Below, piece by piece: positions 7,911-25,644 of a DNA stretch of 64,000 bases (within the stretch, counting starts at the first letter, position 1; each line of letters opens with the position of its first letter). The notes under the pieces are model-generated. The model was not told the origin of the DNA. It searched no databases and saw only the letters and a program-made list of their open reading frames with translations. The position numbers and the translations under genes are program-made. Source of the stretch: Desulfuromonadales bacterium (GTDB taxonomy: Bacteria > Desulfobacterota > Desulfuromonadia > Desulfuromonadales > SZUA-540); assembly GCA_033549025.1 (NCBI GenBank), contig JAWSUS010000007.1, forward strand, positions 85,522 to 149,521, read 5' to 3'.

Positions 7911-7940
7911 GTCCGGGCGGTACTTGAAAGGACAAGCACA

Positions 7941-8513: not shown

Positions 8514-8598
8514 CACAGGGTGGAGGCAAGCGGCTTGACTGCCTGAGGCGAAGGTGCTAGAAATAAGGGCTTTTTACAGCCAACATGGGGGTGCGTTC

Positions 8599-9870: not shown

Positions 9871-9882
9871 TAAAGTGACTGC

Positions 9883-9948
9883 GGAGGAGTGGCCGAGTGG
9901 TTTAAGGCGGCGGTCTTGAAAACCGTTGTACGAAAGTACCGTGGGTTC
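9883..9948 (+). pseudogene. 5' portion of host tRNA-Ser(UGA), interrupted in the T-loop (left junction of the element)
   Basis: GGAGGAG acceptor strand, D arm, GCGGT-CTTGAAA-ACCGT anticodon arm, variable arm, GTGGGTTC, then unrelated TTATATCC; the matching 3' end is at 25619-25644. Confidence 0.9.
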
Positions 9949-9963
9949 TTATATCCGCCTCAG
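9949..9963 (+). repeat. Left imperfect terminal inverted repeat TTATATCCGCCTCAG
   Basis: 12/15 match to the reverse complement of 25604-25618 (TTATATAAGGCTCAG). Confidence 0.75.
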
Positions 9964-10012
9964 AACGCTGCACGTTTTAAAAACAATTGATAATTATTTT
10001 TATATAGAACTA

Positions 10013-10102
10013 GGTGGGCTGGCCGAGTGGTTGAAGGCGCTGGTCTTGAAAACCAGAAGCGATTAACGTCGCTCCGGGGTTCGAATCCCTGGCCCACCGC
10101 CA
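10013..10102 (+). tRNA. tRNA-Ser(UGA), element-encoded complete copy
   Basis: Acceptor GGTGGGC/GCCCACC, anticodon arm CTGGT-CTTGAAA-ACCAG, long variable arm, GGTTCGAATCC T arm, G discriminator, encoded CCA. Confidence 0.93.
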
Positions 10103-10112
10103 AAATAATAGT

Positions 10113-10153
10113 AAAAACGGGGACCTAGAGGATTCTGGGTCCCCGTTTTTTTT
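10113..10153 (+). terminator. Intrinsic terminator after the element tRNA
   Basis: AAAACGGGGACC...GGTCCCCGTTTT stem followed by a T tract. Confidence 0.7.
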
Positions 10154-10288
10154 GTCGTAACTCTCACATTCCCCTCTCCGCAAACCATAGTGCGCAGTAA
10201 AATAGCTGCGTCCTGTTGTGTTCCGCTAATCTTCCTATATACTGTCCCTCGAAAGTTACTGCGCTTTATTTCCTCGTCGGAGGGGTCT

Positions 10289-11746
10289 ATGAAAGCCGGC
10301 AGACGTTACAAGCACCTCGCACTGCTAAAAACGGCCAAGAACGGAAAACCAACGTTTGCGTTGCTGGCCGAAGATCAGGCCTTGTGTGACTTCTTCGATC
10401 ATTGGGCATACCTGCTCGCCAAAAATAACAGCCCTAACACCGTCCGTGCCTACTCCTACGCAGTTGCAGATTTTCTCAATTATATCGAAGAGATATCAAT
10501 TCGGTTCGGCCCCCTCACCCGGGCCTTGCTTCGTGAGGCAATTGACAGCTATGAGAGCTACCTTGTTTTTGGTGAAGACAGCGATGCTGAGATGGCGGCG
10601 GCGGCGGCCAAGGTGCTTGGCTCAAGAAGCTTGTCGGGAGGCTCCGTCGAGCAGCACTTTGCTGGTGTAAATCGATTTATCGAGCAAAGCGAGAATCTTC
10701 GACAAAGCCTGCAATCTCTCGTAGGTACAGGTTTTTTGTCCGGACCCGCCAGCGCAGCGACAGCGTTGGTGGAGTATGGTTACGCCGACACGCCCGCCAA
10801 GGTTCAGGCAGCGATAAAGGGGAACAGTTGGCTGGCTGGGTGTATCAGCGGTGGTTACAAGAAGTTGGCGAAGAGGGGGTTGGGGAAAAAGGCCAAGGCG
10901 TCAGGCGTGGCTCACACAAATGAACACGGTGGCGACGATAAGACTTTTCCTTATGATCTCGCCGTCGCCACGATTAAACAGGCCCCTTCTACTCGTGAAA
11001 TGCTCTTGTGGTCTCACCTCTGCGCTACTGGATGTAGGGTGCATGAGGCTTTAACAACTCTAATCGATGACATAATCATCGATATCAACGACCCAACCAA
11101 CAATAGTGTTCGTATAGTCGACCCAGAAAAAAGGCGTAATGTGCTCTCTAGGTATCTGACCGAGGAGCAGATCAACATGCTTCCCCATAAAGGTAGACAG
11201 ACAGAGACAACATATATGATTGAACCCTTTGCCTCAATGTTCTGGAAGTATCTCGATAAGTACATCCAAGAGGAGAGGGGTAAGGACAAAGGAAAAGGAA
11301 GGATTGTAACGCACAAGTTTCTTTATAGAAAACTAACCGACGGTGAGCCTTGCGTTAACTCCTACCAAACCCTTTGGGAGCGTTTCCATACTGTTTCCTT
11401 AAAGGTTACAGGGGAGTCTTACGGGTTTCACTCTTTAAGGCATATGTATGCCTACTATTTAGTGAACTTTGCCCCTAATCCAAGCGGTGGCTTTGGTTTC
11501 GATTTGAAGACCGTTGGTGATTTACTTGGTCAAAAAAGTTTAAGTGCAACAAAAAGGTACGCAAGGAAAGACGCGCAATTGCTTAGCATCGCCATAGGCG
11601 CTATGAATTACGAGAGGGATAGGAACCCCCACTTTTCTATTGCAAGCGCAAGACTATCTTTTCTTGAAAAGGAAGTGGAGAAGTTAAAGATGCAGATCGA
11701 GTACAATAATGCGGCCGGGGGGAAAGACATTGGTCAACTTAACTGA
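10289..11746 (+). CDS. Tyrosine recombinase/integrase 1
   Basis: N-terminal SPNTVRAYSYAV (SAM-like) region; catalytic TGCRVHEAL, HKGR, FHSLRHMY, LLGQ, TKRY; ATG 10289 follows GGAGGGG. Confidence 0.88.
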   Translation: MKAGRRYKHLALLKTAKNGKPTFALLAEDQALCDFFDHWAYLLAKNNSPNTVRAYSYAVADFLNYIEEISIRFGPLTRALLREAIDSYESYLVFGEDSDAEMAAAAAKVLGSRSLSGGSVEQHFAGVNRFIEQSENLRQSLQSLVGTGFLSGPASAATALVEYGYADTPAKVQAAIKGNSWLAGCISGGYKKLAKRGLGKKAKASGVAHTNEHGGDDKTFPYDLAVATIKQAPSTREMLLWSHLCATGCRVHEALTTLIDDIIIDINDPTNNSVRIVDPEKRRNVLSRYLTEEQINMLPHKGRQTETTYMIEPFASMFWKYLDKYIQEERGKDKGKGRIVTHKFLYRKLTDGEPCVNSYQTLWERFHTVSLKVTGESYGFHSLRHMYAYYLVNFAPNPSGGFGFDLKTVGDLLGQKSLSATKRYARKDAQLLSIAIGAMNYERDRNPHFSIASARLSFLEKEVEKLKMQIEYNNAAGGKDIGQLN

Positions 11747-14700
11747 TCGCCCGATATGGAATGTAGACGATTCCGAGGTCGGGGTCAAAATAAGAAGAGC
11801 TGTAACCGAGGTTCATCGAATATGTAGAAGCATTATTCCCGTTGGCACAACCGGCAAACAATCAGCTATGGTGCCAACCTTAAAGGTCCTTGAATCGAAA
11901 GACCTTAGAACTATTGACACTTGGTCCATTGACAAGGCGAACAAGTTCATAGATAGGGCCGCACACACCAAGGACGTATCCCCTCCAGGGGGGGTAGATG
12001 ATATTTTTGGCGGAATCGCCAAGTGGGGCGCCACCCGTGGGTTTGGTACCTTCGCAAAGTTGGTGGTGATCCAATTGTGGATTGACGAAGTATTGATCGC
12101 CCCGTTGAATTACGGTGCGCCGTCAAACACAGACCATATACTGGATGCTTTGATCGCCAATGGTGAAAACAGCATCCTCGTTGATGTTCGCTCGGTGAAT
12201 AAACTATCAAAGTTCGAGTATAGGGGGAGCGATAAGTTAGAGGATAGGAATAGGAGGGCCAATCATTGGTTTAGGCTGCTGCTGAATACCTCATTCTATA
12301 AGGTCGAGTCTTTAACCGAAGACGATATTAAAGTCCTTTTAAGGGCTGGTAGTGGCGTTAAAAGCTTGTTGCCGAGGTATTACGTCCCCGACTTCCTTTT
12401 ATCAATTACGGCCAAAAATGCAGAACTAAAGAAAACCGTCTCTGATCTGATTAGTGGCCATAAAGTGTCCGTTGCCGAAGCTTATAGTGCCGGTAGGGCG
12501 GAAAAGGCAACTCTGCCACCTCGGGTTAATAAAGGAGAATTAATTCCTAAGCTCTGTCTCGACTATTCAAGTGGATCGGACCCGGACATATCGCTGGAAG
12601 ATCTGGTTGGCGAGGTTGTTGGGACCATAAACCTTAGGAAGGTTTTCGGTGGCTCCCATGCGGATATGGGTCTGCCCATCTACAAAGGGCTTCCAGATAA
12701 GGTAAGGGATTTTTGTCAGTTAATAAACACGACGTTTTCAAGCTTCATTAGGACGGCAGGGCAAATAAAAGGCGACAATTATATCTTCGCCAAAAATATT
12801 ATGATGTTTTACATATCGGTATGCCTGCCGAGGTTCTATCTGGATAGAGATGGGAGACTAGAAGAGTATCCAACTACGCTTAATGAATTCTCCTGTCCCT
12901 ATTATGTTACAAGGGACTCCTTGTTGGACGATGTTCTCGATTATGACAAGAAGGCTCCAGACACGCTGATATCATTTGTGAACCTGTATTCAGACCTTCA
13001 TGATTGGGTAAACGATACTCTCTATGCTCGTGTGCTGATACTGGAAAAGTATTTTCAGTATATAGTTGACAACAGAACACTGATTCCGAACTCCGATAAA
13101 GTAACAAACACCTTTACTAAGGCCAATTATCCAAGAACAGCCAGGCGAACAGGAACGGCCAAGAAGCCAATACCAAGGAAATACTTCTCCACGTTCGTCG
13201 GATTATTATATACGCTTGAGTATTTGGTGACCCATCTAAACGCCATGGCCGATGGGCTTGCGCCCGGCTCAATTAACGGCAGTCTGCAATATGTGACCAG
13301 GGCCGAACTTGAAGAGCGGCATCTGTGGAGGGGGCTGTGGGGTAAGCCGGGGAGTATCGGCGGCCTGCTTGACCTGTCTTTATTGAACTACACGCCGATA
13401 TATTTACACGGAGGCAAATATAGGCCGCTAAAAAAGTGTCACAGGTTCTACAGTATTTCAGAGTACGAACAGAAAGACGGTGTTCCTATCTCTTACGCAA
13501 GCCCTCACGAGATAAGAGCAACCATCCTGATGTGTGAAACAGGTATAAGACAAAAGCACCTACTATGGTTGGACGTCGACCGGTATGACTGTTTTGTCGA
13601 TAGAAGCCACGACCATGTACTATGCCCGTTGCTTGTAAATACAGACAAGGCCCATGATGAATGGACTGCTATCGTCAGCGCCAGGGTCATTAAAGTATGT
13701 GATCGACAAAGAGATTTTTACTTAAACTGTGGTGACCCGAGCTTTGACGAAAATATGTGGTACAGCGAAAGTGAAGGAGCCAAGTTCGGCAAGTTCAAAC
13801 CGCTGTTCCGCCAGCCAAAGGCCGCAACCAGTTGGACGAACCATATAGCATTCCCCAAACTCCTCTGGACATTGCAGCACATCATTCACGAGGATCTGAA
13901 GGAGTATGATGCTCCTGACCTTGTCATGCTTGCGTCCACCACTGGAAAAGGAGAGCGAACCGAAGTCATCGAATATACAGAAAAATCCCTGTCCGGATAC
14001 AGGATTATCAGCAAGCACACCCCGCATGCGCTTCGGGCGGGCTTTGTGACAGAGGCCATCAGGTTTCTGCCCCCGTCGCTGATCGGTGAGTGTATGACCG
14101 GCCAAACGGAGTCCTTGGTCTGGTATTACACCGTCACCGACCCTAATGACTTCACGAGCCACCAGCAGTTGCTGGCCAACTACCTATCCAAAAACGCAGA
14201 GGCAATATCACGAGGAGACGCTCCAGAGCTGGCCGCAACCGTGGCGAAGGTAAACAAAAAGCTGATGTCCGCTATTGAGGCCGACCCGGCCGCCGCAGTA
14301 GAAAAATATAAGCTTATGAGCCTCACCGGGATCTCGGAAGACAAGACGGGTCTGAAGCTGGTCCTAGCCAAAAAGCACACGAAGCTGGCCTTTAACCCGT
14401 CTCATATATGCCCATTCGACAACAGGTGCCCCAAGGAGGTCTTCGAGGCGTACGGGCCGAATAGGCCGTGTGCTCTCTGTACGTATTCGATTCGAGGTGT
14501 CCCTCACTTGCCTGCGGTCAGCGCTTGCAAGAGCAAGAACTTTGAGCTGATGGGCGAATATCAACAAAAAATCATCGAATACATTAAGCGGCCGAAGTCG
14601 GCCCAAAATGCAAGTGAGCTAGAAAAGCTCAACGATGAACATGACAATGCTATGCGAGAAGCAACGGCGCTAGAAGCGATAGAACAGCAGCTCTATGCCC

Positions 14701-15086
14701 TGTCAGAGTCCGAAGACAGTAATGCCTACATTGTGCAAGAGAAGGATGCCCTAGTGGCACACTTTGAGAAGGTCGAACTTAACGAGGCAGAGCACCTTAT
14801 AAAAAGGCTTGTCGACGTGCAGAACTTTCCAGATCTTGACAGTCCCACCATCCAACGGAAATTCGCCTATCTAAGAAAGAAGCTCCTCATTAATGATGGT
14901 GACTTGGCCGGTCTTTTAAGTGACTTCGACGGAGAAACAGAGGTTAAATTATTGACATCACAGTTGAAGAGCATGATGGATGTGAAGAAACTTGGAGTAA
15001 AGGAGATATTTAAAATAGCCTCTTCAAATCCAAGGACTGAGCAAAACCTTTCATCCGGTTCTTCGATAAAGAATCTCTTGACCTAA
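11709..15086 (+). CDS. Large (~1120 aa) tyrosine recombinase 2 with long N-terminal region and Cys-rich C-terminus
   Basis: ETGIR, NTDKAH, TPHALRAGFVT, TGQ-x5-WYY catalytic set; C-terminal CPFxxxC...CxxC; overlaps integrase 1 (start may be TTG 11730). Confidence 0.8.
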   Translation: MRPGGKTLVNLTDRPIWNVDDSEVGVKIRRAVTEVHRICRSIIPVGTTGKQSAMVPTLKVLESKDLRTIDTWSIDKANKFIDRAAHTKDVSPPGGVDDIFGGIAKWGATRGFGTFAKLVVIQLWIDEVLIAPLNYGAPSNTDHILDALIANGENSILVDVRSVNKLSKFEYRGSDKLEDRNRRANHWFRLLLNTSFYKVESLTEDDIKVLLRAGSGVKSLLPRYYVPDFLLSITAKNAELKKTVSDLISGHKVSVAEAYSAGRAEKATLPPRVNKGELIPKLCLDYSSGSDPDISLEDLVGEVVGTINLRKVFGGSHADMGLPIYKGLPDKVRDFCQLINTTFSSFIRTAGQIKGDNYIFAKNIMMFYISVCLPRFYLDRDGRLEEYPTTLNEFSCPYYVTRDSLLDDVLDYDKKAPDTLISFVNLYSDLHDWVNDTLYARVLILEKYFQYIVDNRTLIPNSDKVTNTFTKANYPRTARRTGTAKKPIPRKYFSTFVGLLYTLEYLVTHLNAMADGLAPGSINGSLQYVTRAELEERHLWRGLWGKPGSIGGLLDLSLLNYTPIYLHGGKYRPLKKCHRFYSISEYEQKDGVPISYASPHEIRATILMCETGIRQKHLLWLDVDRYDCFVDRSHDHVLCPLLVNTDKAHDEWTAIVSARVIKVCDRQRDFYLNCGDPSFDENMWYSESEGAKFGKFKPLFRQPKAATSWTNHIAFPKLLWTLQHIIHEDLKEYDAPDLVMLASTTGKGERTEVIEYTEKSLSGYRIISKHTPHALRAGFVTEAIRFLPPSLIGECMTGQTESLVWYYTVTDPNDFTSHQQLLANYLSKNAEAISRGDAPELAATVAKVNKKLMSAIEADPAAAVEKYKLMSLTGISEDKTGLKLVLAKKHTKLAFNPSHICPFDNRCPKEVFEAYGPNRPCALCTYSIRGVPHLPAVSACKSKNFELMGEYQQKIIEYIKRPKSAQNASELEKLNDEHDNAMREATALEAIEQQLYALSESEDSNAYIVQEKDALVAHFEKVELNEAEHLIKRLVDVQNFPDLDSPTIQRKFAYLRKKLLINDGDLAGLLSDFDGETEVKLLTSQLKSMMDVKKLGVKEIFKIASSNPRTEQNLSSGSSIKNLLT

Positions 15087-15109
15087 AACAGCGTCTGGGG
15101 GGGTGTATT

Positions 15110-15754
15110 ATGGTGGCTAAGAAGAAGAGAACGTTTGATCCCTTTGAGGAGCATAGGGAAGGGAAGGTCAATAAAAGACTTCGCCACGTAAGGACTTCCC
15201 TTTCGATTTTGAAGAATAGCAAATACAATAGCATGACAAAGCTCGCCGAGGCTGTTGCGGCGCTTGTTACCGAGTTCGAGTTGAGGGATGCGGGGGTTAA
15301 TGAAAAGACCGATGAAATAAAGGGTTGCGACCCATCGGCGCTGATTCGGAGTGGCTCTAAGTATAGAGAGGCCATACAAGCAGGCTGGGAGATACGTCAG
15401 GGCGGTAGTGAAAAGGAAGGCGAGGGTGTTTCCGAGTTAGAGTCTCTAAAGATCAGGTGCGCAAACCTCGCCCACCATAACGATCTGCTAGAAAGAAGGC
15501 TTGAGCATAAGGGTCTGACTGCACTGCTCGAGCAGCCTAATGCTGCGCTAGAGGAAAAGGTCAAGGATATTAGGGCCTTGCTTGACATTATCAACGGGGT
15601 GTTTGGGCAAGTGGCAGACTTGTTCACGACGGTACTGGAGGGGGATGAAGACTCTGAGCACCCCGAGGCGGGTCTGTACGGGCCGCATGGCCTGGCTGTG
15701 GGAATTGAGGCGTTGAAGCGCCTTAAGGGGGCGCAAGATGGACAAAAAGATTAG
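15110..15754 (+). CDS. Hypothetical protein, third gene of the recombinase operon (coiled-coil; possible accessory factor)
   Basis: Co-directional 214-aa ORF that overlaps the next gene; function inferred from position only. Confidence 0.6.
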   Translation: MVAKKKRTFDPFEEHREGKVNKRLRHVRTSLSILKNSKYNSMTKLAEAVAALVTEFELRDAGVNEKTDEIKGCDPSALIRSGSKYREAIQAGWEIRQGGSEKEGEGVSELESLKIRCANLAHHNDLLERRLEHKGLTALLEQPNAALEEKVKDIRALLDIINGVFGQVADLFTTVLEGDEDSEHPEAGLYGPHGLAVGIEALKRLKGAQDGQKD

Positions 15755-16217
15755 TCCCCATGAGAAGGGCATCCTGAACGCCAAGAACTACGCCAAGTAC
15801 GTTAAGGGCCTGGAAGAAAACGGGAAGCAGTTTCCGGTTAATCAGTTTGGCGAGGTCAATAAGGAGGCTGTCGCTGCGGCCTGTGGCTTTAATCGTCAGG
15901 TCTTCAACCCAAAGAGTAACAAGAAGATGGCGGATCGCCTGGCGGCCGACGTAGATAGGATCGGGATTGAAGGTGAATATATACCGCCACAAGCCCCGGG
16001 AGAGTCAGAAGGTGCACTGGCCAGGAGGGCAAAGAAAAGTGCGGAGACCGTTAGCAAGCTCAGGAAGGATCTGGCCATAGAGAAAGAAAAGGTCACGTCT
16101 CTTGAGGTGCAAATAAAAAAGCTCGAATACGAGCTTGATACGCTTAAACAGTCATCTGCCGAGCAGAAGAACAGCTTTGACTTTATGGTTTCCACCGGCA
16201 GAAGGTTCACTCTATGA
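15738..16217 (+). CDS. Small HTH/coiled-coil accessory protein (resembles VPA1267 family)
   Basis: GEVNKEAVAAACGFNRQVF HTH-like segment, C-terminal coiled coil ending TGRRFTL; ATGA overlap with the helicase. Confidence 0.55.
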   Translation: MDKKISPHEKGILNAKNYAKYVKGLEENGKQFPVNQFGEVNKEAVAAACGFNRQVFNPKSNKKMADRLAADVDRIGIEGEYIPPQAPGESEGALARRAKKSAETVSKLRKDLAIEKEKVTSLEVQIKKLEYELDTLKQSSAEQKNSFDFMVSTGRRFTL

Positions 16218-18388
16218 GAATCTCCGAAATCGTCGAAGTCAGAAATGTATGGCCTTCCCCGTTTGGTGGCGCCATGTTTAAGTGCGTAAAAGCCGGAGGA
16301 AGTCGACTGTTCTTATGCAAGGCAGGATACAACGTTCTTGCCAGGATACCCAAGGAGTCTGAGTTCTGGAAAATAACCGGAGATATGACCTACACCCAAG
16401 AAAATGGTGTCGTTTGTAATGTTATTTCGGCTGTGGTCACCGGCCTGCCATCAGACAAATATGTCGGCGGCCTGTTGAAAACCCATGATGCCTTCAGGGG
16501 TTTCGATTTCGGTCTAAAGAAGATCGACCGGCTCCTCGATGCTACCGCCGACTCCGACCTCGTTGATATGCTCAACAGTGGGGATTGGCAGTCCATCTCA
16601 AACACCGGGTTGAGCGAGAAGATATCTAAGCGGGTGTGCGAAGAGTGGGGCAAGCTGAAGGAGGAGAGGGATCTAGCTACCTTCTTGCACGACCATCAGC
16701 TTGACAGTAGCTTGGCCTCCAAGGTCATCAAAATGTGCTCCCGCAACCCCATGGAGAGGCTAAAGAATAACCCCTTCTCCCTGCTCGCCTTGAGCAACGC
16801 TACAATCCGGAACCTGCAAGATATCGCAGGGATAGCCAGCAGGCTGGGCATTGACGAAAACGATGACCGGACTCTTGTTGGCCTCGTAGAGTTTGCCCTG
16901 TATGAGGCTCTGGAGGATGGGAGCACCATTGTCGAGGTCGACGCCCTGAGGGCCAGGATCTCCGAACTCAGCAAGCTGGTGGGCACTACCCTGCCACCAG
17001 ACGCCGCCATCTGTGCAGCATTGAAGATCAAGGCCGTCTGTGTGTTTACGGAGGACGGCAAATACTTTATTCAGTTGATCGGAGTTGCCTACATCGAACA
17101 AAGTGTCGAGAAAAAGCTTTCCTGGCTACAAAAACAGCCAATGCAGCTTCGACTGAAAGAGTTGTCTGGGGGCACCCTGACTGAAAAGGTGAGCGCCTAC
17201 AATAAGCGACTGCGTAACAGTGAGGGATATTCGCTTACAAACCAACAGTGTGATGCAGTTGAAATGGCTCTCTCTAACAGACTTTCCTTGCTGTCAGGTT
17301 TTGGTGGTACGGGTAAAACGACTGTTCTTAAAGCCATAGTTGAGCTTGCCGAAGAATTTGAAATACCAGTACATGTCTGTGCTTTAGCTGGAAAGGCGGC
17401 CGACAGAGCGCGGCAGTCAATCAACCGTGAAACCTTCACTATTCATGGGTTGATATACGAGATAATAAAATCCAACGGTAAGGTTAATAAGGGGTCAGAT
17501 CCGCTCATTATCATTGATGAGTCCTCCATGGTCGACATTTCACTTGTCAGGAAATTCCTTTCTTCATTCGGCGATAGCCCATTTAAGGTTCTGCTGGTCG
17601 GAGATACTGCACAGTTGGCTCCAATTGGGTTTGGCTTGTTCTGGCACGAGATGGTTAAGTCGGACGTGCCGAAGGTTCACTTGACCAAGGTCCATCGCCA
17701 GTTGGCAGGAAGCCCCCTGCATAATGCGGCAATGCATATCAGAGAGGGCCAAATTCACGCCCTGGAGAAGTATTCGGGCCAAGAGGAGGGTATCTACCTT
17801 CTCGGAAGCATCGGCGACCCCAGGGTGGCGATACGCGATCTCATGAGGGAGGTGGATGCGGTTACGCTTACTTCGTACTCCAGCGACCGAATCGCTGGCT
17901 CATCAAGCCAGCTAAACGCTTACCTGCAAGGCGAACTTAACTCCAAGAGAGGAGTAAGTATGGGGCTTGCCACTATAGCTTTAAAGACTGGCGATCCAGT
18001 TATTGCGACGATCAACAACCAGGCGCTGGGCATTTACAATGGTATGGCGGGCTTTGTTAAGTCCATCGTTATTGATGGCGACGGTACAATGGGCTGCAAT
18101 ATCAAGTTTGACGACAGATCAAGCGAGATATTACTTTCGAGGGACGAGTGTTTCGAGGTTGGTCTCGATCTGGGATATGCCATAACTATTCATAAATCCC
18201 AGGGCAGCGAATATGAAAGCTGTATTGTCTGCTTGAGTAAGAACCTTGAAAGAAGTGCTATATACACCGCTGTAACAAGGACAAAGAAACTCTGCATTAT
18301 TGTAGGCACTCAGCAGCAATATAATGATGCCGTCCGGGGGGAGCCGCGATACGAGCAGATCCAGTGTGGGTTTAGGTGCGCAGCCTAG
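16214..18388 (+). CDS. RecD2-like SF1B helicase
   Basis: Walker A GFGGTGKT, IIDESSMVD, VGDTAQLAPIG, HRQ, YAITIHKSQGSE, YTAVTR; NPF/HhH N-terminal region. Confidence 0.88.
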   Translation: MRISEIVEVRNVWPSPFGGAMFKCVKAGGSRLFLCKAGYNVLARIPKESEFWKITGDMTYTQENGVVCNVISAVVTGLPSDKYVGGLLKTHDAFRGFDFGLKKIDRLLDATADSDLVDMLNSGDWQSISNTGLSEKISKRVCEEWGKLKEERDLATFLHDHQLDSSLASKVIKMCSRNPMERLKNNPFSLLALSNATIRNLQDIAGIASRLGIDENDDRTLVGLVEFALYEALEDGSTIVEVDALRARISELSKLVGTTLPPDAAICAALKIKAVCVFTEDGKYFIQLIGVAYIEQSVEKKLSWLQKQPMQLRLKELSGGTLTEKVSAYNKRLRNSEGYSLTNQQCDAVEMALSNRLSLLSGFGGTGKTTVLKAIVELAEEFEIPVHVCALAGKAADRARQSINRETFTIHGLIYEIIKSNGKVNKGSDPLIIIDESSMVDISLVRKFLSSFGDSPFKVLLVGDTAQLAPIGFGLFWHEMVKSDVPKVHLTKVHRQLAGSPLHNAAMHIREGQIHALEKYSGQEEGIYLLGSIGDPRVAIRDLMREVDAVTLTSYSSDRIAGSSSQLNAYLQGELNSKRGVSMGLATIALKTGDPVIATINNQALGIYNGMAGFVKSIVIDGDGTMGCNIKFDDRSSEILLSRDECFEVGLDLGYAITIHKSQGSEYESCIVCLSKNLERSAIYTAVTRTKKLCIIVGTQQQYNDAVRGEPRYEQIQCGFRCAA

Positions 18389-18465
18389 GTCGCCCGGCAT
18401 CGCTGCCGCCGGCGGTGGCGGCTGGAAAACCAACATTGAGGCATTGACTCGGAAGAGGCACAGAG

Positions 18466-19125
18466 ATGTATCCAATCAAGTCGATCGTCTATTGGCTAGT
18501 TGTAGTTTTTGGCGTCTGTTTTTCTTTGAGTGGGTGCGCTGGTCTTATCCATACTGAAACAACACGTATAAAGGTTGAAGGTCTCATTGTTACTGACAGG
18601 GAGCATTTAACTGAGTGGTCGGAGTTTTTCAGTTCCCCAGATTCCAGGGTAAAAATTATTTCGGAAGAGGATAGCCTAGTACAAGCCTCGGACTTGGAAG
18701 TTGAGAATAAATTCTATCATGTCTCTTATTTGCCATACTACCAAGGGTTTTGCGAAGATTTCCGAAACGAAGGTCTTGTTGAAAAAGTTCAACGGGAATT
18801 TAAAAAGAAGAATGAAGGTATTATTGTCGAAAGCGCTAGTGTAGACGAAAAAACATTACAGAATTGCAAGGATGGACTTCAGAGCAGCGTAATTTGGTCG
18901 ACCAACAACGACTCACACGTAGCCGAATTGCCCTTGACTATATATATGACTCTGGACTCCCTAGTAGAGAGTAAATACAAATATGAGTGGGCTGGAACGC
19001 GATGTGCTGATGGATGGATATCCTCTTCGACCGGAAGAGGAGCCTGCTCCTGGCACGGAGGGGTAGCTGGATCTGTGTATAGGAAAAGATACCTAGTTGA
19101 TAAGAATAGCCCATTATTCCCCTAG
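18466..19125 (+). CDS. Lipoprotein with C-terminal DUF3761-like Cys/His motif
   Basis: Signal peptide with LSGC lipobox; CADGWISSSTGRGACSWHGGV. Confidence 0.65.
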   Translation: MYPIKSIVYWLVVVFGVCFSLSGCAGLIHTETTRIKVEGLIVTDREHLTEWSEFFSSPDSRVKIISEEDSLVQASDLEVENKFYHVSYLPYYQGFCEDFRNEGLVEKVQREFKKKNEGIIVESASVDEKTLQNCKDGLQSSVIWSTNNDSHVAELPLTIYMTLDSLVESKYKYEWAGTRCADGWISSSTGRGACSWHGGVAGSVYRKRYLVDKNSPLFP

Positions 19126-19148
19126 CCCTATCGACCGCGCGGTCTACG

Positions 19149-19372
19149 TTGAGGACATTCCTTCCCGTCTCCTCACGATACAACCCGTTCTATGGCCATA
19201 CCCTTAAAGGCGCACTGAAGCAAATCAAACGCCTACTTGGCTGGGAAGCCGAAAATGCCTACGTTGACAAGGGCAACCCGAAGCAACTGGGCAAGACCAA
19301 TGTTCATCTGAACATGGAACTTTATTCGATTGTGGCCTGAAGGCGAAATTTCGAGTTTTTCAGGGACGACTA
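19149..19372 (+). mobile_element. IS5-family (IS1478-like) remnant: transposase fragment plus right terminal IR
   Basis: Peptide NPFYGHTL...AYVDKG resembles the IS5 DDE segment; ends TTTTTCAGGGACGACTA (19356-19372). Confidence 0.6.
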
Positions 19373-19848
19373 TTGTAAAAGACGACGTCTAAATCGAGAT
19401 AAGAACAAAAAAGGAAAAAGGGGCTCCCGCTTATTCTCCAAGCGCGTGGACGCCATTGGTTAACATTGCCATACAAAACAAGCATTGACGGGTTGTCGAC
19501 GTAATTATCTGGAAACCTAGCTATATTTCTCAGGGCTTTTTTGTCTTTTCCGCTGAGGATTCCAGGCCCCGATGGGTGCGTATGCCAATCTCCCAAGTAA
19601 AAAATCTGCCCATCTTTTTCATCATAAATCCGCCCCATCTCTTCTCTCTGATAGTCTTCATCGGGGCTAAAAAAGCATTCCCCATGCACAGCATTAAGGC
19701 CTGGCCCGACCATGCCTGTGGCAACGATCTCTGTATTGTCTCTTGAGAAGTAACCGACTAAAAGCCCCCCTGTTTCCAGGGGGGCTTTATCGTTCGCCTC
19801 ATCAAGCATCTCTTGATAAACGTTATTATTTATCCAGATCCTTTTCAT
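19360..19848 (-). CDS. JAB/MPN+ (Prok-JAB) metallo-isopeptidase
   Basis: ETGG catalytic Glu and YLGDWHTHP-x6-S-x2-D JAMM motif; ATGA overlap with the upstream E2-E1 gene. Confidence 0.9.
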   Translation of the reverse strand: MKRIWINNNVYQEMLDEANDKAPLETGGLLVGYFSRDNTEIVATGMVGPGLNAVHGECFFSPDEDYQREEMGRIYDEKDGQIFYLGDWHTHPSGPGILSGKDKKALRNIARFPDNYVDNPSMLVLYGNVNQWRPRAWRISGSPFFLFCSYLDLDVVFYNSRP

Positions 19849-21623
19849 TTACCGCACCACGGGTTGCTACAATCAGGATGCTTTTCCAGCTCAAAAGACT
19901 CCCACTTTGGGAAGATTGCTTTACCATTTTCACGCAAATGCAGAATCCCAACATCATTATCCATTGCTGGATAGTCGCCAGAAGAACCATCGCACATTAT
20001 CGATATTGCCATGCGAACACCAGCCAGAGAAATTTCCTGAACATCAAAACTTGTTGCCTTGAATGTTAAATCTCCGCACCCTACCGGCTGAAGTTCATCT
20101 CCCTCTGGGTCGAAAGTAGGTTGAGATATTTTGCCTTCCTCTAGCGCCCTTAGGTAGCAGAGGAAGCATCCTTTACCAGACAAAATCCTAACAACACTCC
20201 CGCCCCATCCTCCAGGACGTGAAGATACAGCAACATACGGGATACTATACTTTTTTGCCATATCCGCGATGAGATGGTTTATTCCAAGCTCAGCCGTTGC
20301 GTCATAAATAAGATCTGCCCCATCTAGCAACCTTTTCAGGCCTTCAAACTGGTCATAATCTGGAGTAACCTGACCAAGAATTATTCTGAAATCATCATTA
20401 CCTGCATCCGGATAATGATCCGTTCCAATTCGTGTTAAAGGATAATTTTCACGAATCTTTTCAGACAGGAATTGGACCTTGCCCGATGTTATTGCTGACA
20501 TTCCTTCAGGCCATCGGCAAACTGTTCCGGAACTTACATAGTCTCCATCCCACAATCTCAGTTCAGCAACTCCTGCACGTGCGAACTCCAATGCGCTCGG
20601 AGCACCCACACAACCCAAGCCAATAACGGCGACAGTCTTTTCTCGTAATGGCCTTAACTCAGGGACCCGTTGAAAAAGATCATTTTCACCTATTGCTTCC
20701 GTTGTTATTACCCAAGTCGCTACCTCGATTTTTTTCTTCCCGCCCTCTTTGTACATTTTTGTCTGATACGCCAGAAACAACCAACCATCCCTGTATCCAC
20801 CACCGGGGGCTTCTTCCTTGAAACAGAAGCCATGAACTCCGCTTCTGCCCTTATTAATTTCATTATCAATCACACGATAGGCTACCGGGTTTATAGCCCT
20901 TATACTTTCACAAAACGTAACACCAGAGCTTAGCCTTGGCACCTTATCAATTCGTGACCACCTGATAGTATCCACACTATTTGTTTTAGCGGTTGCATAC
21001 GCTCCAATCGCAGGGTTTACGGAGCAGTCGCCTACCACGCTCTTGTCACTCTTCTGTATTGAGTGAACCCATGCTTTAAGCGGTTTATGAGGAGAGATTT
21101 TTCTTATGGGGTGGGTTGAAAATATTCTCAAAAGCCCCTCCCTGACTTTTTCAGGCAAGGACCAAGAGCTGTCCATCAAAAATATTTGGTTCTTGAATGG
21201 AGCAAAATAAGCACTTTGCGGCTCCGCTTGATGATCCTCTGTATCTAAACGCGAGTCATCAAAACCACGAACTGCCGCCCTCTCCCATTCCGGGAGCATT
21301 TCAACAATATGCTTAGCTGCCGTCCTGCAAGGTTGCCACTCTCCGGTACCTCTTTTCAGAAGGCATATTTCGCCGGTATGAGGGTTATAGTGCCGCAGAC
21401 CACCCCCCAGGCCCAAGCAATTTACTACCGGTCTGAAGTATGGATAAAGCTGAGGATACTCGATCCAGCCATTTTCACCCTGGCCGAATATTGTGAGTTT
21501 TATCCGAACAACAGCAAGGCCTCTAGCAAATGATTCATCGTCCTTAACTGGTTGCAAACCAGATTCTTGGAGTGCGGTGAGTTCTTCGTCTAAAACGGCA
21601 GGGTACTCATCCCACCACCGCAT
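19845..21623 (-). CDS. E2-E1 (ThiF) fusion ubiquitin-like transferase, Cap2-like architecture
   Basis: N-terminal E2 features (YPQLYPYFRP, HYNPHTGEICLL with Cys); C-terminal E1 (VIGLGCVG, WDGD, YDATA, CFLC and C-terminal Cys pair for Zn, PVGCGDLTF catalytic-type Cys). Confidence 0.85.
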   Translation of the reverse strand: MRWWDEYPAVLDEELTALQESGLQPVKDDESFARGLAVVRIKLTIFGQGENGWIEYPQLYPYFRPVVNCLGLGGGLRHYNPHTGEICLLKRGTGEWQPCRTAAKHIVEMLPEWERAAVRGFDDSRLDTEDHQAEPQSAYFAPFKNQIFLMDSSWSLPEKVREGLLRIFSTHPIRKISPHKPLKAWVHSIQKSDKSVVGDCSVNPAIGAYATAKTNSVDTIRWSRIDKVPRLSSGVTFCESIRAINPVAYRVIDNEINKGRSGVHGFCFKEEAPGGGYRDGWLFLAYQTKMYKEGGKKKIEVATWVITTEAIGENDLFQRVPELRPLREKTVAVIGLGCVGAPSALEFARAGVAELRLWDGDYVSSGTVCRWPEGMSAITSGKVQFLSEKIRENYPLTRIGTDHYPDAGNDDFRIILGQVTPDYDQFEGLKRLLDGADLIYDATAELGINHLIADMAKKYSIPYVAVSSRPGGWGGSVVRILSGKGCFLCYLRALEEGKISQPTFDPEGDELQPVGCGDLTFKATSFDVQEISLAGVRMAISIMCDGSSGDYPAMDNDVGILHLRENGKAIFPKWESFELEKHPDCSNPWCGK

Positions 21624-21775
21624 TAGCCTACCTGTCTTCCTCCACCAGGATTCGGACGATCGGCTGGACGATTCCCGGGATTTTCTGGAGGGGTAGCTGG
21701 AGTTGCAGGATTTCCTGGCCCATTAGGGTCTGCCGGTGTTGCAGGATTTCCTTGGCCTTTATCATTGTTTGCCAT
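21623..21775 (-). CDS. 50-aa low-complexity peptide ending in Gly; candidate modifier (not in ORF track)
   Basis: MANNDKGQGNPATPADPNGPGNPATPATPPENPGNRPADRPNPGGGRQVG*; GAGG RBS 7 nt upstream; TAATG stop/start overlap with the E2-E1 gene. Confidence 0.8.
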   Translation of the reverse strand: MANNDKGQGNPATPADPNGPGNPATPATPPENPGNRPADRPNPGGGRQVG

Positions 21776-21832
21776 AACCGAACCTCATCTTTTCGTTAGA
21801 GTACAACATATTAATCAAATCCAACAACACCC

Positions 21833-21861
21833 AAGTTATCACTCCAAAACGAGACCGTCAA
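21833..21861 (-). promoter_or_regulatory. Putative sigma70 promoter of the peptide-E2/E1-JAB operon
   Basis: Minus strand TTGACG-17 nt-TAACTT, about 58 nt upstream of the peptide ATG. Confidence 0.55.
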
Positions 21862-21899
21862 CCAAAAACACAATATAAAAGTATGAAGCGAAATCCAAA

Positions 21900-21915
21900 C
21901 CACTATATATTGTGG
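21900..21915. promoter_or_regulatory. NrdR-box-like palindrome
   Basis: cCACTATATATTGTGg matches aCACwATATATwGTGt; weaker partial copy CACAATATAAAAGT 32 bp away at 21869. Confidence 0.45.
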
Positions 21916-21931
21916 CATATATCGAATTAGG

Positions 21932-22815
21932 TGTTAGAAATCTGAGCGTTGTTTACACTTTTTCGCCATAGAAATGATCGAGTAGCTTTTCGTATGGCGT
22001 CATCCCGTCAATGCCTTTGTAGGGCTTGACCGTGTTGTAGAAGTTAGTGAAGCGCAGCAGGCTGATCTGGCGACTCTTTCGATCACCGAACGTTTCCTTC
22101 TGGTGCCACATCTCCATAAGCGTGAGGATCGCGCGTTCTGCTTTGCCATTGGTCTGAGGTCGATTGATCGAGTGAATTTTTGGCCAATACCGAGTTCAGC
22201 GCAGGTTTTTACAAAAGCGTGTTCGCTGACTCCTCTGAATTCTTTGCCGTTGTCTGAGTAGGTGTATTCGATGGTGTAAAGACTTTCATCGGCAACCTGG
22301 CGCAAAAAGAGTTCAGCACTGTATTGGGTCTTGTCCGGGAATATCCCAGCGTAAAGTTCCCGGGAAAAATCGTCAATGGCGACGAACAGATACTCTCTGG
22401 GAAGTGACTGATCCTCGCCTTTAATCAACGGGAGACGTTTGCTTTCAAAATGGACCAACTCTCCCGGATATGATTTGTTGTAACGCCTGGCTTCACGTTT
22501 GCGCTTTTCTTCAAGCTCGCGTTCAACCTTGGCTAGACGCTTTAGCCCATACTTGAGGCTGCGGAAACGATTATTGACGCTGCGTCTCGGAACGAATTCC
22601 TGCTTCCTGGCCCGGGCCAGTGTCTTGTAAATCGTTGGCCGTGAGACGCGATACATTTCTGCCAGGCGACTGACCTTGTATTCGCCTGTCTGCCATAACT
22701 GCCAAATCTTCTGGCGGTCATGGGGTGTTAACCGTATGTGTTTGTGCATGACCATGTTTGCAAAATCCTCCTTCACCAATATCGGATTCTGTAAACAATG
22801 CGTCAATTTCTTACA
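21932..22815 (-). mobile_element. IS481-family element with frameshifted transposase
   Basis: TGT...ACA ends with ~26-bp imperfect IRs; AATTAGG direct repeats at 21925-21931 and 22816-22822; AIDDFSR and SDNGKEF motifs; RPQTNGKAER lies in another frame after a shift near 22170. Confidence 0.88.
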
Positions 22816-23021
22816 AATTAGGTATTAAAATGATTTATGCTTAATTGCCCGTCTTAATGTTTACCCCAACACAATCCAATAGCTAGATTACTTATTTTGG
22901 CGTGTTTTTACGTTTTGGGTTGGGATAAGGGTTAAGTGTAACGGGTAAAACGAGAAAGTTATCATACAAAATTGAAGCTGTATGATATGTGTATCTATTG
23001 ATTGAATATCAAAAACTATTT

Positions 23022-23038
23022 TAGTCGTCCCTGAAAAA
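23022..23038 (+). repeat. IS5-family terminal IR TAGTCGTCCCTGAAAAA (start of a second, truncated IS copy)
   Basis: Perfect 17-bp reverse complement of 19356-19372; no transposase follows. Confidence 0.7.
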
Positions 23039-23270
23039 TGGTAAGAGACTGAAATTAAGTATATATTTCCTGTTTATTATTGATAAAATCACCAGAAAAC
23101 AGAGTTCATGCCTTCGCAGCTTTGTTCGTTGAGTTGGGGAATTGTTGAAATAATGGGCCGCTGTTTCTGCCAAGGCTCTGGTCAGCGCTTTTTATCCCTG
23201 GCGTTACCTCTGCTTTCAAGGAGAGCGATGTTCTGCCTTAGTCACGGTTGTGGTGTAAAAGGAGAGCTAA

Positions 23271-24425
23271 ATGGAAATGCTTAAATATTATCTGGGGGGA
23301 CGTGAGCAGGCGTTTATAAAACATGCCCTGCTTAAGGCATATTTGGAAAAACTGTTCATGATAATCGGGCAGCGACAGAGGTGCATTTGTTATGTGGATT
23401 GCTTCTCAGGACCCTGGGAGGAAAGCGCAGAGAACCTCATGGATACATCCATAGGTATCTCGCTTGATATAATGGCAAAGTGCCGTAAAGCCTTGGCTGC
23501 AATGAGAAACGAAGTGAAGTTCCGTGCGCTTTATATAGAAAAAACAAGGAAGTCATATGATAAACTTCAGGATTTCCTAAAACAAAGCAAGGAACTAGGG
23601 GTGGAGACTAGAGCCATAAGAGGAGAGTTCCACAATAATCTCAATGAAATTATTGACTGGTGCGGAAGCAAAGACTTTGTCTTCTTTTTTGTTGATCCAA
23701 AGGGCTATGCAAATGTAATTGAACCACAAACACTTGAGCCGCTTCTACATAGAAAAAACTCAGAGATACTAATAAACTTTATGTATGATCATATTAATCG
23801 ATTTGTCGAATCAAAATCAAATAGGAATTTAATTGTTGATATATTCGGAGAGGTACCTGTAGTTGGTGGCCTTGAACCAAAGAAGAGAGAAGAATACCTT
23901 CTTGAATTATATAGACGAAGGCTCAAGAGTGTTATGTCCGAAGTTGGCGGGGTGCCTCGATTCGCATATGTAAGCGTGGTAGACACAGAGAAGAGTAAAA
24001 CAAAGTACGAAATGGTGTACCTGACTAGGCATGCATTAGGCATATTGAAGTTTTTAGAGGTATCTGAACCTTTGGAGATAATACAAAAGCAAGTTAAACA
24101 GAAAGCCAAAGAGCATCGATCAAAGCAGCCGTCGTTGTTCTCCTTCGAGGAGATTCCCGAAGTGAACGAGGGGGTTAGCATTGAAGAAGTGAAACATTTT
24201 TGGCTGAGAAAATTGAGCACTGTCCCTGAGCCTTTTGGCTATGATAGGATGGCTGACATGCATGAAGAGACAGGCTGGTTGCTAGGTGATTTTCAGCGTG
24301 CCTTCTCGGAACTGCTCAAAGAAGGCAAAGTGCAAAATATTGACATGAGTAAGCCTCGTCGCTCAAGGCCTATCCACTTTGAGGAGAACCGAGGTGAAGG
24401 CGAGCGCTTGAGAAAGCTGGTATGA
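23271..24425 (+). CDS. tcmP: Three-Cys-motif partner protein TcmP (methyltransferase-like fold with C-terminal wHTH)
   Basis: KHALLKAYL, YVDCFSGP, FFFVDPKG, SEILINFM motifs; ATGA overlap with DUF5131. Confidence 0.8.
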   Translation: MEMLKYYLGGREQAFIKHALLKAYLEKLFMIIGQRQRCICYVDCFSGPWEESAENLMDTSIGISLDIMAKCRKALAAMRNEVKFRALYIEKTRKSYDKLQDFLKQSKELGVETRAIRGEFHNNLNEIIDWCGSKDFVFFFVDPKGYANVIEPQTLEPLLHRKNSEILINFMYDHINRFVESKSNRNLIVDIFGEVPVVGGLEPKKREEYLLELYRRRLKSVMSEVGGVPRFAYVSVVDTEKSKTKYEMVYLTRHALGILKFLEVSEPLEIIQKQVKQKAKEHRSKQPSLFSFEEIPEVNEGVSIEEVKHFWLRKLSTVPEPFGYDRMADMHEETGWLLGDFQRAFSELLKEGKVQNIDMSKPRRSRPIHFEENRGEGERLRKLV

Positions 24426-25162
24426 GTACAAAGTCAAAGATCGAATGGACCGAGCAGACATGGAACCCTGCGGTGGGTTGCAGCAAGGTTTCCCCCGGCT
24501 GCACAAACTGTTATGCCGAGGTGATGGCAAAACGCCTCCAGGCAATGAAGGTAAACGGCTATCAGAATGGATTCGAACTGACCACGTTGCCGAAACGGCT
24601 GGAGGAGCCGCTTATGCGCCAGCGTTCAACAGTTTTTTTTGTCAACTCGATGAGCGACCTGTTCCATGAGGAGATACCCTTCGACTATATTGATAGAGTT
24701 TTCGAAGTGATAGCGAAAACTCCGCGCCATACATACCAAGTCCTAACAAAGCGTGCCGAACGCATGGCCACCTATTTTGCAGAGCGTAAGACACCGCCGA
24801 ACGTTTGGCTTGGTGTGACCGTGGAAGACCGTAAGCATGGTCTTCCACGCATTGATCACTTACGGCAGATCCAAGCCTGCATACGGTTTCTCTCTATGGA
24901 GCCGCTACTGGAAGATCTTGGCCCGGTTGACCTGACTGACATCCAATGGGTTATCGTTGGAGGCGAGTCGGGACCGAAGGCAAGGCCAATGAGGCCCGAA
25001 TGGCCCAAGAGTATTCAGCGCCAGTGTCAAAAGCAAGGAGCTGCTTTTTTCTTCAAGCAGTGGGGTGGATGGGGTCCAGATGGTATTAAGCGGGCGAAGA
25101 AAAAAAATGGTCGCATTCTTGACGGCAGAACATGGGATGAAACTCCGGCAATGTTCGGATAG
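24422..25162 (+). CDS. DUF5131 / phage Gp37-Gp68 family radical-SAM-like protein
   Basis: SKIEWTEQTWNP, GCSKVSPGCTNCYA, FVNSMSDLFH, QVLTKR, WVIVGGESG, FFKQWGG. Confidence 0.88.
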   Translation: MSTKSKIEWTEQTWNPAVGCSKVSPGCTNCYAEVMAKRLQAMKVNGYQNGFELTTLPKRLEEPLMRQRSTVFFVNSMSDLFHEEIPFDYIDRVFEVIAKTPRHTYQVLTKRAERMATYFAERKTPPNVWLGVTVEDRKHGLPRIDHLRQIQACIRFLSMEPLLEDLGPVDLTDIQWVIVGGESGPKARPMRPEWPKSIQRQCQKQGAAFFFKQWGGWGPDGIKRAKKKNGRILDGRTWDETPAMFG

Positions 25163-25296
25163 CCCGCACTCTCTCCCTTCTGCCATGTGCCTTCCCTTAG
25201 CTCTTCCCGCTCCAGCGGCCGAGTCTCACTTGCCCAAGGAGTCGAGGCGCGCCCGAGAAGAGTGAGCACAAAGAAAACCAGCCAAATAGAGCCGAT

Positions 25297-25340
25297 ACAA
25301 AAGCCCCTTGGAGCTGAGGTTGTTCCAAGGGGGCTTTTGT
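25297..25340. terminator. Stem-loop, likely bidirectional terminator
   Basis: ACAAAAGCCCCTTGGA...TCCAAGGGGGCTTTTGT. Confidence 0.6.
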
Positions 25341-25478
25341 GTCGGGCCCGCCCCTACGTGGCGAGGCGAGTATCTTTGCGAAGCTCAACTAGGTTCGATA
25401 GCAGAGCCTTTTTACAATGCGCAGTTAAGTGCGCATTGTAGGGGCCGCACTCCGCCCCATTGCCACCTTAAAAACGGA

Positions 25479-25508
25479 TTGACATTAGCAGTGCATTTCA
25501 ATTAGTAT
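25479..25508 (+). promoter_or_regulatory. Putative outward-facing sigma70 promoter near the right end of the element
   Basis: TTGACA-18 nt-TAGTAT. Confidence 0.45.
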
Positions 25509-25603
25509 TGCCACCGTCCACGGAACATCGTGGACGCTCTAGTAGGCGAGCCGTTTCTCTAGGCGTCAGGCTTACTTACATACGGTTGGGAAGTGGGATC
25601 ACC

Positions 25604-25618
25604 CTGAGCCTTATATAA
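25604..25618 (-). repeat. Right imperfect terminal inverted repeat
   Basis: CTGAGCCTTATATAA directly before the GGGTTC core. Confidence 0.75.
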
Positions 25619-25644
25619 GGGTTCGAATCCTACCTCCTCCGCCA
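25619..25644 (+). pseudogene. Displaced 3' end of host tRNA-Ser(UGA) (right junction)
   Basis: GGGTTCGAATCCTACCTCCTCCGCCA; CTCCTCC pairs with GGAGGAG at 9883 and not with the element tRNA. Confidence 0.9.

Follow-up and report, generated by a model that had tools for sequence, protein, structure and literature searches.

The window analysed here is a stretch of 64,000 nt from a Desulfuromonadales bacterium (GCA_033549025.1, contig JAWSUS010000007.1, positions 85,522-149,521, forward strand). It carries an operon of three minus-strand genes, which encode a 50-residue proline-rich peptide, a fused E2-E1 enzyme resembling Cap2 and a JAB peptidase (Table 1). An earlier interpretation of the bare letters, hereafter the sequence-only reading, had placed the three open reading frames (ORFs) correctly, and the peptide end PNPGGGRQVG and the translational overlaps that it described, TAATG at 21623 and ATGA at 19845-19848, are present. 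It had also proposed a promoter and a ribosome-binding site (RBS). The RBS was found as described, but the promoter was not confirmed: a consensus scan gave no site upstream of the peptide gene, and the region contains 1 site where shuffled sequences have 4.6. The ORF list shows no fourth gene in the operon and no gene for DUF6527 (BubE), which belongs to Bub systems. The final few codons and the stop of the JAB gene come from the end of an IS5-family insertion sequence (IS), and the C-terminus of the 162-residue protein has the same length as in its homologues.

Table 1. Features discussed in the text, in window positions.
Feature	Position	Strand	Basis or remark
Peptide gene, candidate modifier, 50 aa, Pro/Gly/Asn-rich	21623..21775	-	C-terminal tail kept, low-complexity N-terminal part variable
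Putative recognition tail, final 16 codons, consensus P-G-P-x-x-P-P-x-P-P-x-x-R-x-V-G	21626..21673	-	Counts over 90 tails
Codon of the terminal Gly50 of the peptide	21626-21628	-	
Cap2-like E2-linker-E1 fusion, 592 aa	19845..21623	-	Pfam ThiF, AlphaFold2, Foldseek, conservation
JAB/JAMM peptidase, Cap3-like, 162 aa	19360..19848	-	PF14464; metal-site motif intact
Shine-Dalgarno-like GAGGT, 6 nt 5' of the peptide ATG	21782..21786	-	Direct reading
Unconfirmed site with a weak likeness to a promoter, TTGACG, 17 nt, TG-a-TAACTT	21833..21861	-	By eye, below scan threshold
Low-GC island, 15.7 kb, integrated in tRNA-Ser(TGA)	9949..25624		Empty site in congener G001
IS5-family right-end remnant, downstream border of the cassette	19181..19376		Intact copy at G000:C36 encodes IS5 transposase
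Remnant of the left end of that IS5-family element, bordering the cassette upstream	23022..23112		
IS481-like insertion with an interrupted transposase frame, immediately upstream of the operon	21927..22823	-	NF033577, below curated cut-off

Comparison across loci indicates that the peptide ORF is real, far beyond chance. We fetched 128 loci of the enzyme family (42 from genomes, the best 80 of 141 from metagenomes and 6 from plasmids), left out 24 with less than 120 nt of upstream DNA and scored the other 104 for a Pro-rich ORF ending in R-x-[VA]-[GA], with at most 6 extra residues and a stop between -250 and +90 nt relative to the start of the enzyme gene. The sequence-only reading had suggested looking for short Pro-rich, Gly-ended ORFs before the homologues of the E2-E1 gene, and such an ORF stands directly before it in 100 of the 104 loci. 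The chance rate of the tail pattern is 0.008 per search window (46 occurrences in 1.99 Mb elsewhere in those loci). Among the misses, the tail of L007 has Lys for Arg and that of L035 sits in a frame that reads on. The tail was also present at the plasmid loci L133, L134 and L138 and in the genome G032. Removal of 10 duplicates gave 90 distinct tails. When these are aligned on the Gly, Pro occurs at position -13 in 86, at -10 in 81, at -9 in 89, at -7 in 85 and at -6 in 77; the Pro positions and the location of the ORF are independent of the search pattern. The terminal residue is Gly in 89 tails and Ala in one, the pattern having demanded one or the other, and 20 of the 100 tails run 1-4 residues beyond the Gly. 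The window's tail retains P-13, P-9 and P-7, and the GGG that precedes its RQVG is typical of its own subclade.

The peptide is also conserved as a gene of its own. In comparison with 11 close homologues, its third codon positions vary at 0.49 and the other two at 0.14 and 0.09, and the mean synonymous difference (pS) of 0.68 against a nonsynonymous one (pN) of 0.19 points to purifying selection. It stands alone in 74 of the 90 distinct loci, with a length of 31-93 aa (median 50), and 65 of these 74 homologues have a comparable or clear RBS. The genome loci with a stand-alone peptide cover 11 named phyla. JAB follows directly in 81 of the 82 loci with enough downstream DNA, and the exception, L088, has a JAB on inspection. 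The N-terminal part of the peptide varies freely, with PATP repeats in the window and HPE, His or DK repeats elsewhere. The window's peptide contains 12 Pro, 9 Gly and 8 Asn in 50 residues; this composition (58% Pro/Gly/Asn) and a predicted local distance difference test score (pLDDT) of 37-40 in complex runs suggest that it is disordered. It has no match in Pfam, PADLOC or NCBIfam and no usable match in the ESM Atlas. A search for fusions of peptide and enzyme among 15 of 257 enzyme homologues with N-terminal extensions showed no intact tail, and 193 pattern matches in viral contigs gave 1 distant locus and no family member with the tail. Of 9 plasmid gene tables, themselves incomplete, 1 lists the peptide, and its gene is easily overlooked. 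The 93-residue peptide of L039 (395-673) has two tail copies apparently in tandem, one internal (RPVG) and one terminal (REVG-R), which can be likened to a poly-ubiquitin precursor.

Of the 90 loci, 16 have the tail at the end of a larger protein of 114-339 aa. These carriers are SMODS CD-NTases (L027, behind a patatin gene, and L029, behind a SAVED gene), ThsB TIR proteins (L019 and L034), DUF3892 proteins (six loci: L025, L045, L047, L113, L120 and L121), DUF1508 proteins (two loci) and proteins with an unnamed domain of about 85 aa (four loci: L018:4634-4981, L024, L107 and L115). Proteins of the CD-NTase and TIR type with a Cap2-conjugated or Cap2-type tail are reported in passages of four papers (10.1101/2022.03.31.486616, 10.64898/2025.12.03.692087, PMC10097602, PMC11153139). 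Since the CD-NTases and TIRs of our loci carry the tail where Cap2 substrates have theirs, these fusions are in our view the best indirect argument for the bare peptide being itself the substrate. In three canonical controls of CBASS, the antiphage signalling system that is based on cyclic oligonucleotides, the upstream genes have Pro-poor tails ending in Ala. All six DUF3892 carriers have a CxxC insert and 3-4 residues after the Gly, and several have a divergent helix-turn-helix (HTH) gene. The domain of about 85 aa, from Bacteroidota, has a CC motif and also occurs alone as proteins of 83-85 aa (predicted models; template modelling (TM) score 0.86-0.92 by the shorter protein); the upstream genes at L018 include an HNH-like ORF and one for a WYL protein. 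A search of the ESM Atlas with a 116-residue carrier gave unnamed clusters alone.

The enzyme has the characteristics of a Cap2. The 592-residue protein matches ThiF (PF00899, E 9e-14, residues 322-493) and the E1-E2 models of PADLOC. Its AlphaFold2 model, made from an alignment of 99 sequences, has a pLDDT of 94.3 and a predicted TM score (pTM) of 0.91, and Foldseek ranks Cap2 of E. cloacae first among its matches (7TO3_A, E 1.2e-22, TM 0.58/0.60). Because this alignment spans 608 columns, at 14% identity, the entire E2-linker-E1 layout is Cap2-like. VIA-align gave mostly single E1 domains, and Cap2 is absent from the 50 rows listed there. The E1 domain resembles MccB, ThiF and MoeB (Z 23-25, VIA-align) and PaaA (Foldseek), and in a sequence search of solved structures the E1 part alone found matches (ThiF, MoeB, Cap2 and UBA5). 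The two catalytic-type cysteines pointed out in the sequence-only reading are kept across the aligned homologues, C87 in 99 of 99 and C516 in 98 of 99; from invariance and position, C87 is the putative catalytic Cys of the E2 domain and C516 the putative crossover-loop Cys of the E1 domain. H78, the nucleotide-site residues, C486, C489 and C585 are likewise invariant across the 99 sequences. The ATP-site residues are G335, G337, G340, D361, R370, K382 and D441, and C486, C489, C585 and C590 are putative Zn ligands.

The 162-residue protein is a Prok-JAB peptidase (PF14464, E 3e-12, above the cut-off), which scores below the cut-off of the NCBIfam Cap3 equivalog. It is intact, as had been said of it: E25, H89, H91, S99 and D102 are kept in at least 98% of 81 JABs. 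The enzyme family comprises 518 representatives at 50% identity (E up to 1e-30), and 247 matches were obtained among 7999 candidates scored. Its distribution is patchy, with the enzyme in 2 of 61 related genomes, the host genome included. Among 19 loci with short enzyme frames that were inspected, 15 (L030, L032, L033, L037, L043, L081, L083, L084, L091, L097, L103, L108, L119, L122 and L131) have the enzyme split at about the same place into E2-linker and E1 genes, which are separate, abutting or overlapping and often have Lys/Arg-rich ends; the remaining 4 break at other places. Eight homologues (P0081, P0092, P0118, P0158, P0172, P0187, P0216 and P0257) bear a basic, disordered, Lys/Arg-rich N-terminal extension of 48-61 aa.

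We also predicted the complex of the peptide with the E1 dimer (residues 300-592), as the sequence-only reading had proposed for the E1 and the peptide. The score was 0.56, against 0.01 for the best control. In the benchmark for that mark, it was reached by 116 of 157 solved pairs and 2 of 215 mismatched pairs; however, only 18 of the 157 solved pairs reached it with a score of 0.60 or under, as did both mismatches. The complex runs had at least 25% of contacts in common and a partner pLDDT of at least 36, and no interface was given. On the one hand, the score lies above the control. On the other hand, the pass may be driven by likeness to solved Cap2-tail structures, and the prediction by itself gives weak support for binding of the peptide to the E1 dimer.

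Considering these results together, we regard the system as a variant of the Cap2/Cap3 module, which by comparison of its genes is real, widespread and largely overlooked. The peptide is very likely a substrate of the E1 domain. It is probable, with somewhat less confidence, that the E1/E2 enzyme conjugates its terminal Gly, presumably to protein lysines, and that the JAB matures and removes the peptide. By analogy with Cap2/Cap3, whose chemistry is described in passages of 10.1101/2022.03.31.486616, PMC10097602 and PMC11153139, the dimeric E1 would bind the poly-proline tail and adenylate Gly50 with ATP. A thioester would then form on Cys516 and be handed to Cys87 of the E2 domain, from which the peptide would be joined to an amine, most likely of protein lysines. 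The JAB would trim the extensions beyond the Gly where these are present and would also cleave conjugates; a role in maturation is suggested because the extended tails run past the Gly as BilA does. The sequence-only reading had taken the peptide itself for the modifier. The stand-alone peptide of most loci and the tail shared with CD-NTases and TIRs speak for this, but conjugation and a protein target are still what we infer.

The acceptor could be something other than a protein: the peptide might be moved to a lipid head group or to a cell-wall or nucleotide amine, as Atg7/Atg3 do with Atg8. Cap2 is described as resembling Atg7/Atg3/Atg10 in part of 10.1101/2022.03.31.486616, and a passage of Jenson et al. 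leaves non-protein targets of Cap2 possible (PMC10097602). In addition, Atg7 entries are among the fold matches of our enzyme, and the operon has neither an E3 nor a target gene. However, the characterised Cap2 enzymes make lysine isopeptides, as passages of PMC10097602 and PMC11153139 report, no membrane anchor is predicted in the enzyme model, and genes for lipid or membrane functions are not conserved among the neighbours. We consider a non-protein acceptor unlikely.

It is improbable, in our opinion, that the peptide is a regulator, such as a pseudo-substrate of the E1, an anti-CBASS decoy or a poly-proline stalling leader, with the true substrate encoded elsewhere. Poly-proline runs, which the peptide has, can stall ribosomes; its gene is tightly coupled in translation with the enzyme gene, and its N-terminal two thirds are free to vary. 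A leader role, however, would not explain the same tail on the larger carrier proteins, the terminal Gly with cleavable extensions is the signature of a substrate, and neither an SMODS cyclase nor another convincing tailed ORF was found in the host genome. Even less credit is due to a path of the RiPP (ribosomally synthesized and post-translationally modified peptide) or sulfur-carrier kind, in which the E1 would adenylate the end of the peptide and yield a modified peptide of the MccB/PaaA type or a thiocarboxylate of the ThiS/MoaD type, perhaps a toxic peptide rich in proline that the JAB sets free. The E1 domain is structurally like MccB, PaaA, ThiF and MoeB, and certain tails of the family presumably resemble proline-rich antimicrobial peptides. 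Against this, the E1 is accompanied across the family by an E2 domain with an invariant Cys, either fused to it or encoded next to it, the first two upstream ORFs include no recurring transporter, tailoring enzyme, rhodanese or sulfur-using enzyme, and the window's tail has no repeated Pro-Arg pattern.

Conjugation of the peptide, as preferred here, also has to be weighed against the decay of a type II CBASS, in which the peptide would be the leftover tail of a deleted CD-NTase. The sequence-only reading had noted that the cassette has no cyclase, effector or beta-grasp protein, and library scans and tblastn agree with it. It had also named a CD-NTase or ubiquitin-like protein (Ubl) consistently upstream of homologous enzymes as the finding that would speak for decay; instead, most tailed loci have a short peptide alone. 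Ten cyclase, TIR and effector queries, which very distant cyclases would escape, gave a match by tblastn in 1 of the 74 stand-alone loci, 55 of which have at least 2 kb of upstream DNA. This match, at L088, comes from a second downstream operon. There (7311-11690), two CD-NTase-like genes come directly behind the peptide-E2E1-JAB operon, and after them a small ORF, then an E1 gene and a JAB-like ORF, an arrangement that we read as two conjugation systems in tandem. Five cyclase queries found no CD-NTase in the island that holds the operon or in the host genome (tblastn), which is 100% complete in 78 contigs and gave no match to the SMODS profile; the PF21654 profile is uninformative on this point, its control being silent. 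No effector family occurs among the island ORFs scanned, queries with patatin and SAVED gave no match either in the island or in the genome, and the genome contains no other convincing tailed ORF.

Phylogenetic analysis addressed the ancestry of the bare form. The FastTree tree contained 77 rows, after exclusion of the duplicates and of 20 loci whose enzymes are split, frameshifted or truncated, and the IQ-TREE tree 41 of those rows, picked by hand. The peptide-linked enzymes form a clade of their own (support 100), to which three canonical Cap2 proteins do not belong. The fused carriers fall in four groups among the stand-alone rows, and the stand-alone label requires 5 changes on the tree, of which at least 4 are forced by starred branches. 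Repeated switching between the bare and the fused tail is thus supported by the sequence tree. A grouping of the cyclase and TIR carriers with canonical Cap2 was not rejected by the approximately unbiased (AU) test (p 0.0995), in which the outgroup branches are long. This compatibility with a cyclase-bearing ancestor, the CD-NTase-tail versions within the same enzyme clade and the IS remnants that bracket the window's cassette all favour decay. Yet the stand-alone form is the majority and has its own start and RBS, the peptide is under purifying selection, the form occurs in at least 11 phyla, and enzymes down to about 25% identity retain the catalytic residues. Even if it derives from a cyclase tail, the stand-alone peptide is maintained and not decaying, and the decay explanation, the least probable of all, is largely refuted by the tails of 100 of 104 loci, the purifying selection and the kept residues. 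A more far-reaching proposal is rather unlikely: in a further class of ubiquitination in bacteria, the fold-less 16-residue poly-proline R-x-V-G tag would be the whole 'ubiquitin', its attachment to proteins of phage or host would itself be the defence and the stand-alone form would be the original one of the enzyme clade. In that case, the tail would have been appended at least four times, being added to CD-NTases and TIRs, DUF3892, DUF1508 and another small domain and placing them under conjugation control.

The conjugation system proposed here can be compared with known ones. It shares with type II CBASS (E. cloacae Cap2-CdnD, 7TO3) the enzyme architecture, an E2-linker-E1 with two putative catalytic cysteines, the gene order substrate-E2E1-JAB and an upstream product with a disordered, Gly-ended tail and no beta-grasp fold. 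It differs in lacking the CD-NTase gene and the second-messenger effector gene, which places it outside type II CBASS, in the low identity and the separate clade of the enzyme, and in the fixed 16-residue poly-proline R-x-V-G motif. The scores fall below the curated cut-offs of the NCBIfam Cap3 and 6A-MBL models. In the latter comparison, JAB, which in 6A-MBL forms a single chain with E2 and E1, is a separate gene here, NF058523 scores 40 against a cut-off of 320 and no metallo-beta-lactamase (MBL) was found among the flanking ORFs scanned. Among the operon families of Iyer et al. 2006, 6b lists pNGR234a and an Arthrobacter (PMC1779556). As members of the peptide-linked family are found on pNGR234a and on a plasmid of an Arthrobacter, its enzymes may have been counted there, judging by organism and plasmid names. 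In Thoeris with Cap2/Cap3, a Gly-tailed TIR is encoded beside Cap2/Cap3, the layout of L019 and L034; the passages of that paper (10.64898/2025.12.03.692087) describe TIR carriers only and no stand-alone peptide.

According to passages of PMC10557695, PMC11601596 and PMC11601603, Bil and Bub share with the present system a dedicated modifier gene without enzymatic cargo, a JAB, and CapH/CapP and WYL regulators. Their modifiers have a Gly with a short removable extension, as BilA pre-proteins do (PMC10557695) and as a fifth of our tails would, and their Ubls with DUF1508 or disordered N-terminal domains parallel our DUF1508-tail fusions. However, Bil has separate, canonical-type E1 and E2 proteins in place of a single Cap2-type enzyme with cysteines, and Bub forms Tyr/Ser oxyesters and has a DUF6527 gene, in contrast to the invariant cysteines found here. 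The operon lies outside both because it has no beta-grasp Ubl: the modifier has no predicted fold, and no other operon ORF is available. The sequence-only reading had called the peptide Pup-like, which fits its unstructured nature and does not fit the chemistry. Pup and UBact are small, intrinsically disordered protein modifiers, which are ligated through glutamate by PafA-type enzymes and linked to the proteasome; for our peptide we infer E1/E2 chemistry. In the 84 loci scanned, the first two upstream ORFs include no PafA-type ligase or proteasome gene, no whole-genome search having been made.

With respect to function, the island location and the defence-type regulators lead us to lean slightly towards an antiphage role. 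Upstream of the operon we scanned 142 of 147 ORFs from 84 loci (E 1e-7). An M78 peptidase of the IrrE/ImmA type, CapP-like, mostly divergent and having an HTH, occurs in 14 of the 84 loci, a WYL regulator in 8 and DUF2188 in 9. For Bub operons, 31% with CapH and CapP and 8% with WYL are given in a passage of Ye et al. (PMC11601596), and CapH/CapP, DUF2188 and DUF3892 are tied to defence in a passage of Lau et al. (10.1101/2022.04.27.489752). With the same slight preference, the system would be induced via CapH/CapP-like or WYL regulators and would defend against phages or other elements by attaching a rigid tag of low complexity to proteins of the phage or of the host, as Bil attaches its Ubl. 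The DUF2188 genes (L010, L014, L036, L038, L052, L053, L056, L064 and L082) stand alone, co-directional and just 5' of the peptide gene; they are present in close relatives of the window's operon and missing from the operon itself.

Several observations weigh against the peptide as a conjugated defence modifier. L087 and L124 show no tail. R, V and G were defined by the search pattern, and their conservation is circular. C109 and C548 of Cap2 are only the presumed counterparts of C87 and C516, and conjugation, its target and a phage role are proposed from genes and sequence comparison. The regulator figures are raw counts. Downstream, no conserved effector emerged: of 95 ORFs scanned (121 called), 6 match PADLOC at 1e-15 and none is repeated, so the defence-island signal is modest. 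Several plasmid copies sit amid metal-resistance or metabolic genes. Finally, the window's copy may be deregulated, as it has no adjacent regulator and the IS481-like element upstream occupies the place where homologous loci often have one.

In the literature covered, the modifiers of E1/E2 systems are beta-grasp proteins or tails of enzymes. Our search found no description of a stand-alone Pro-rich peptide with Cap2/Cap3-like enzymes, in texts whose supplements, not covered, may list such loci. If true, this would be a ubiquitin-like system with a bare peptide instead of a folded ubiquitin. The tag would be separated from any cargo, and the role and natural targets of Cap2-type conjugation by itself would become directly testable. 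Together with its one-chain ligase and a dedicated protease, the portable tail of 16 residues would also make a very compact tool for protein labelling.

The operon lies in an island that contains tyrosine recombinases, a RecD2 helicase, the peptide operon and a TcmP/DUF5131 pair. The island interrupts the tRNA-Ser(TGA) of its host within the T-loop (core GGGTTC), leaving parts at 9883-9948 and 25619-25644, and the gene is unsplit in the congener G001. A different, complete tRNA-Ser(TGA) at 10013-10102, just inside the left end, serves as a replacement. Imperfect inverted repeats, which start with CTTATAT, form the ends of the island. The core (10190-18388) encodes a tyrosine recombinase, a 1125-residue protein with no Pfam match, two small coiled-coil proteins and the RecD2-like helicase, and the pair at 23271-25162, a TcmP partner and DUF5131, matches the PADLOC candidates PDC-M30/PDC-M41. 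The IS5-family end remnants face outward and bracket the operon, resembling a decayed composite transposon. Outside the island, a minus-strand ORF of 1334 aa (28026-32030) resembles, by eye, a secreted protein of the lytic-transglycosylase and PAAR type.

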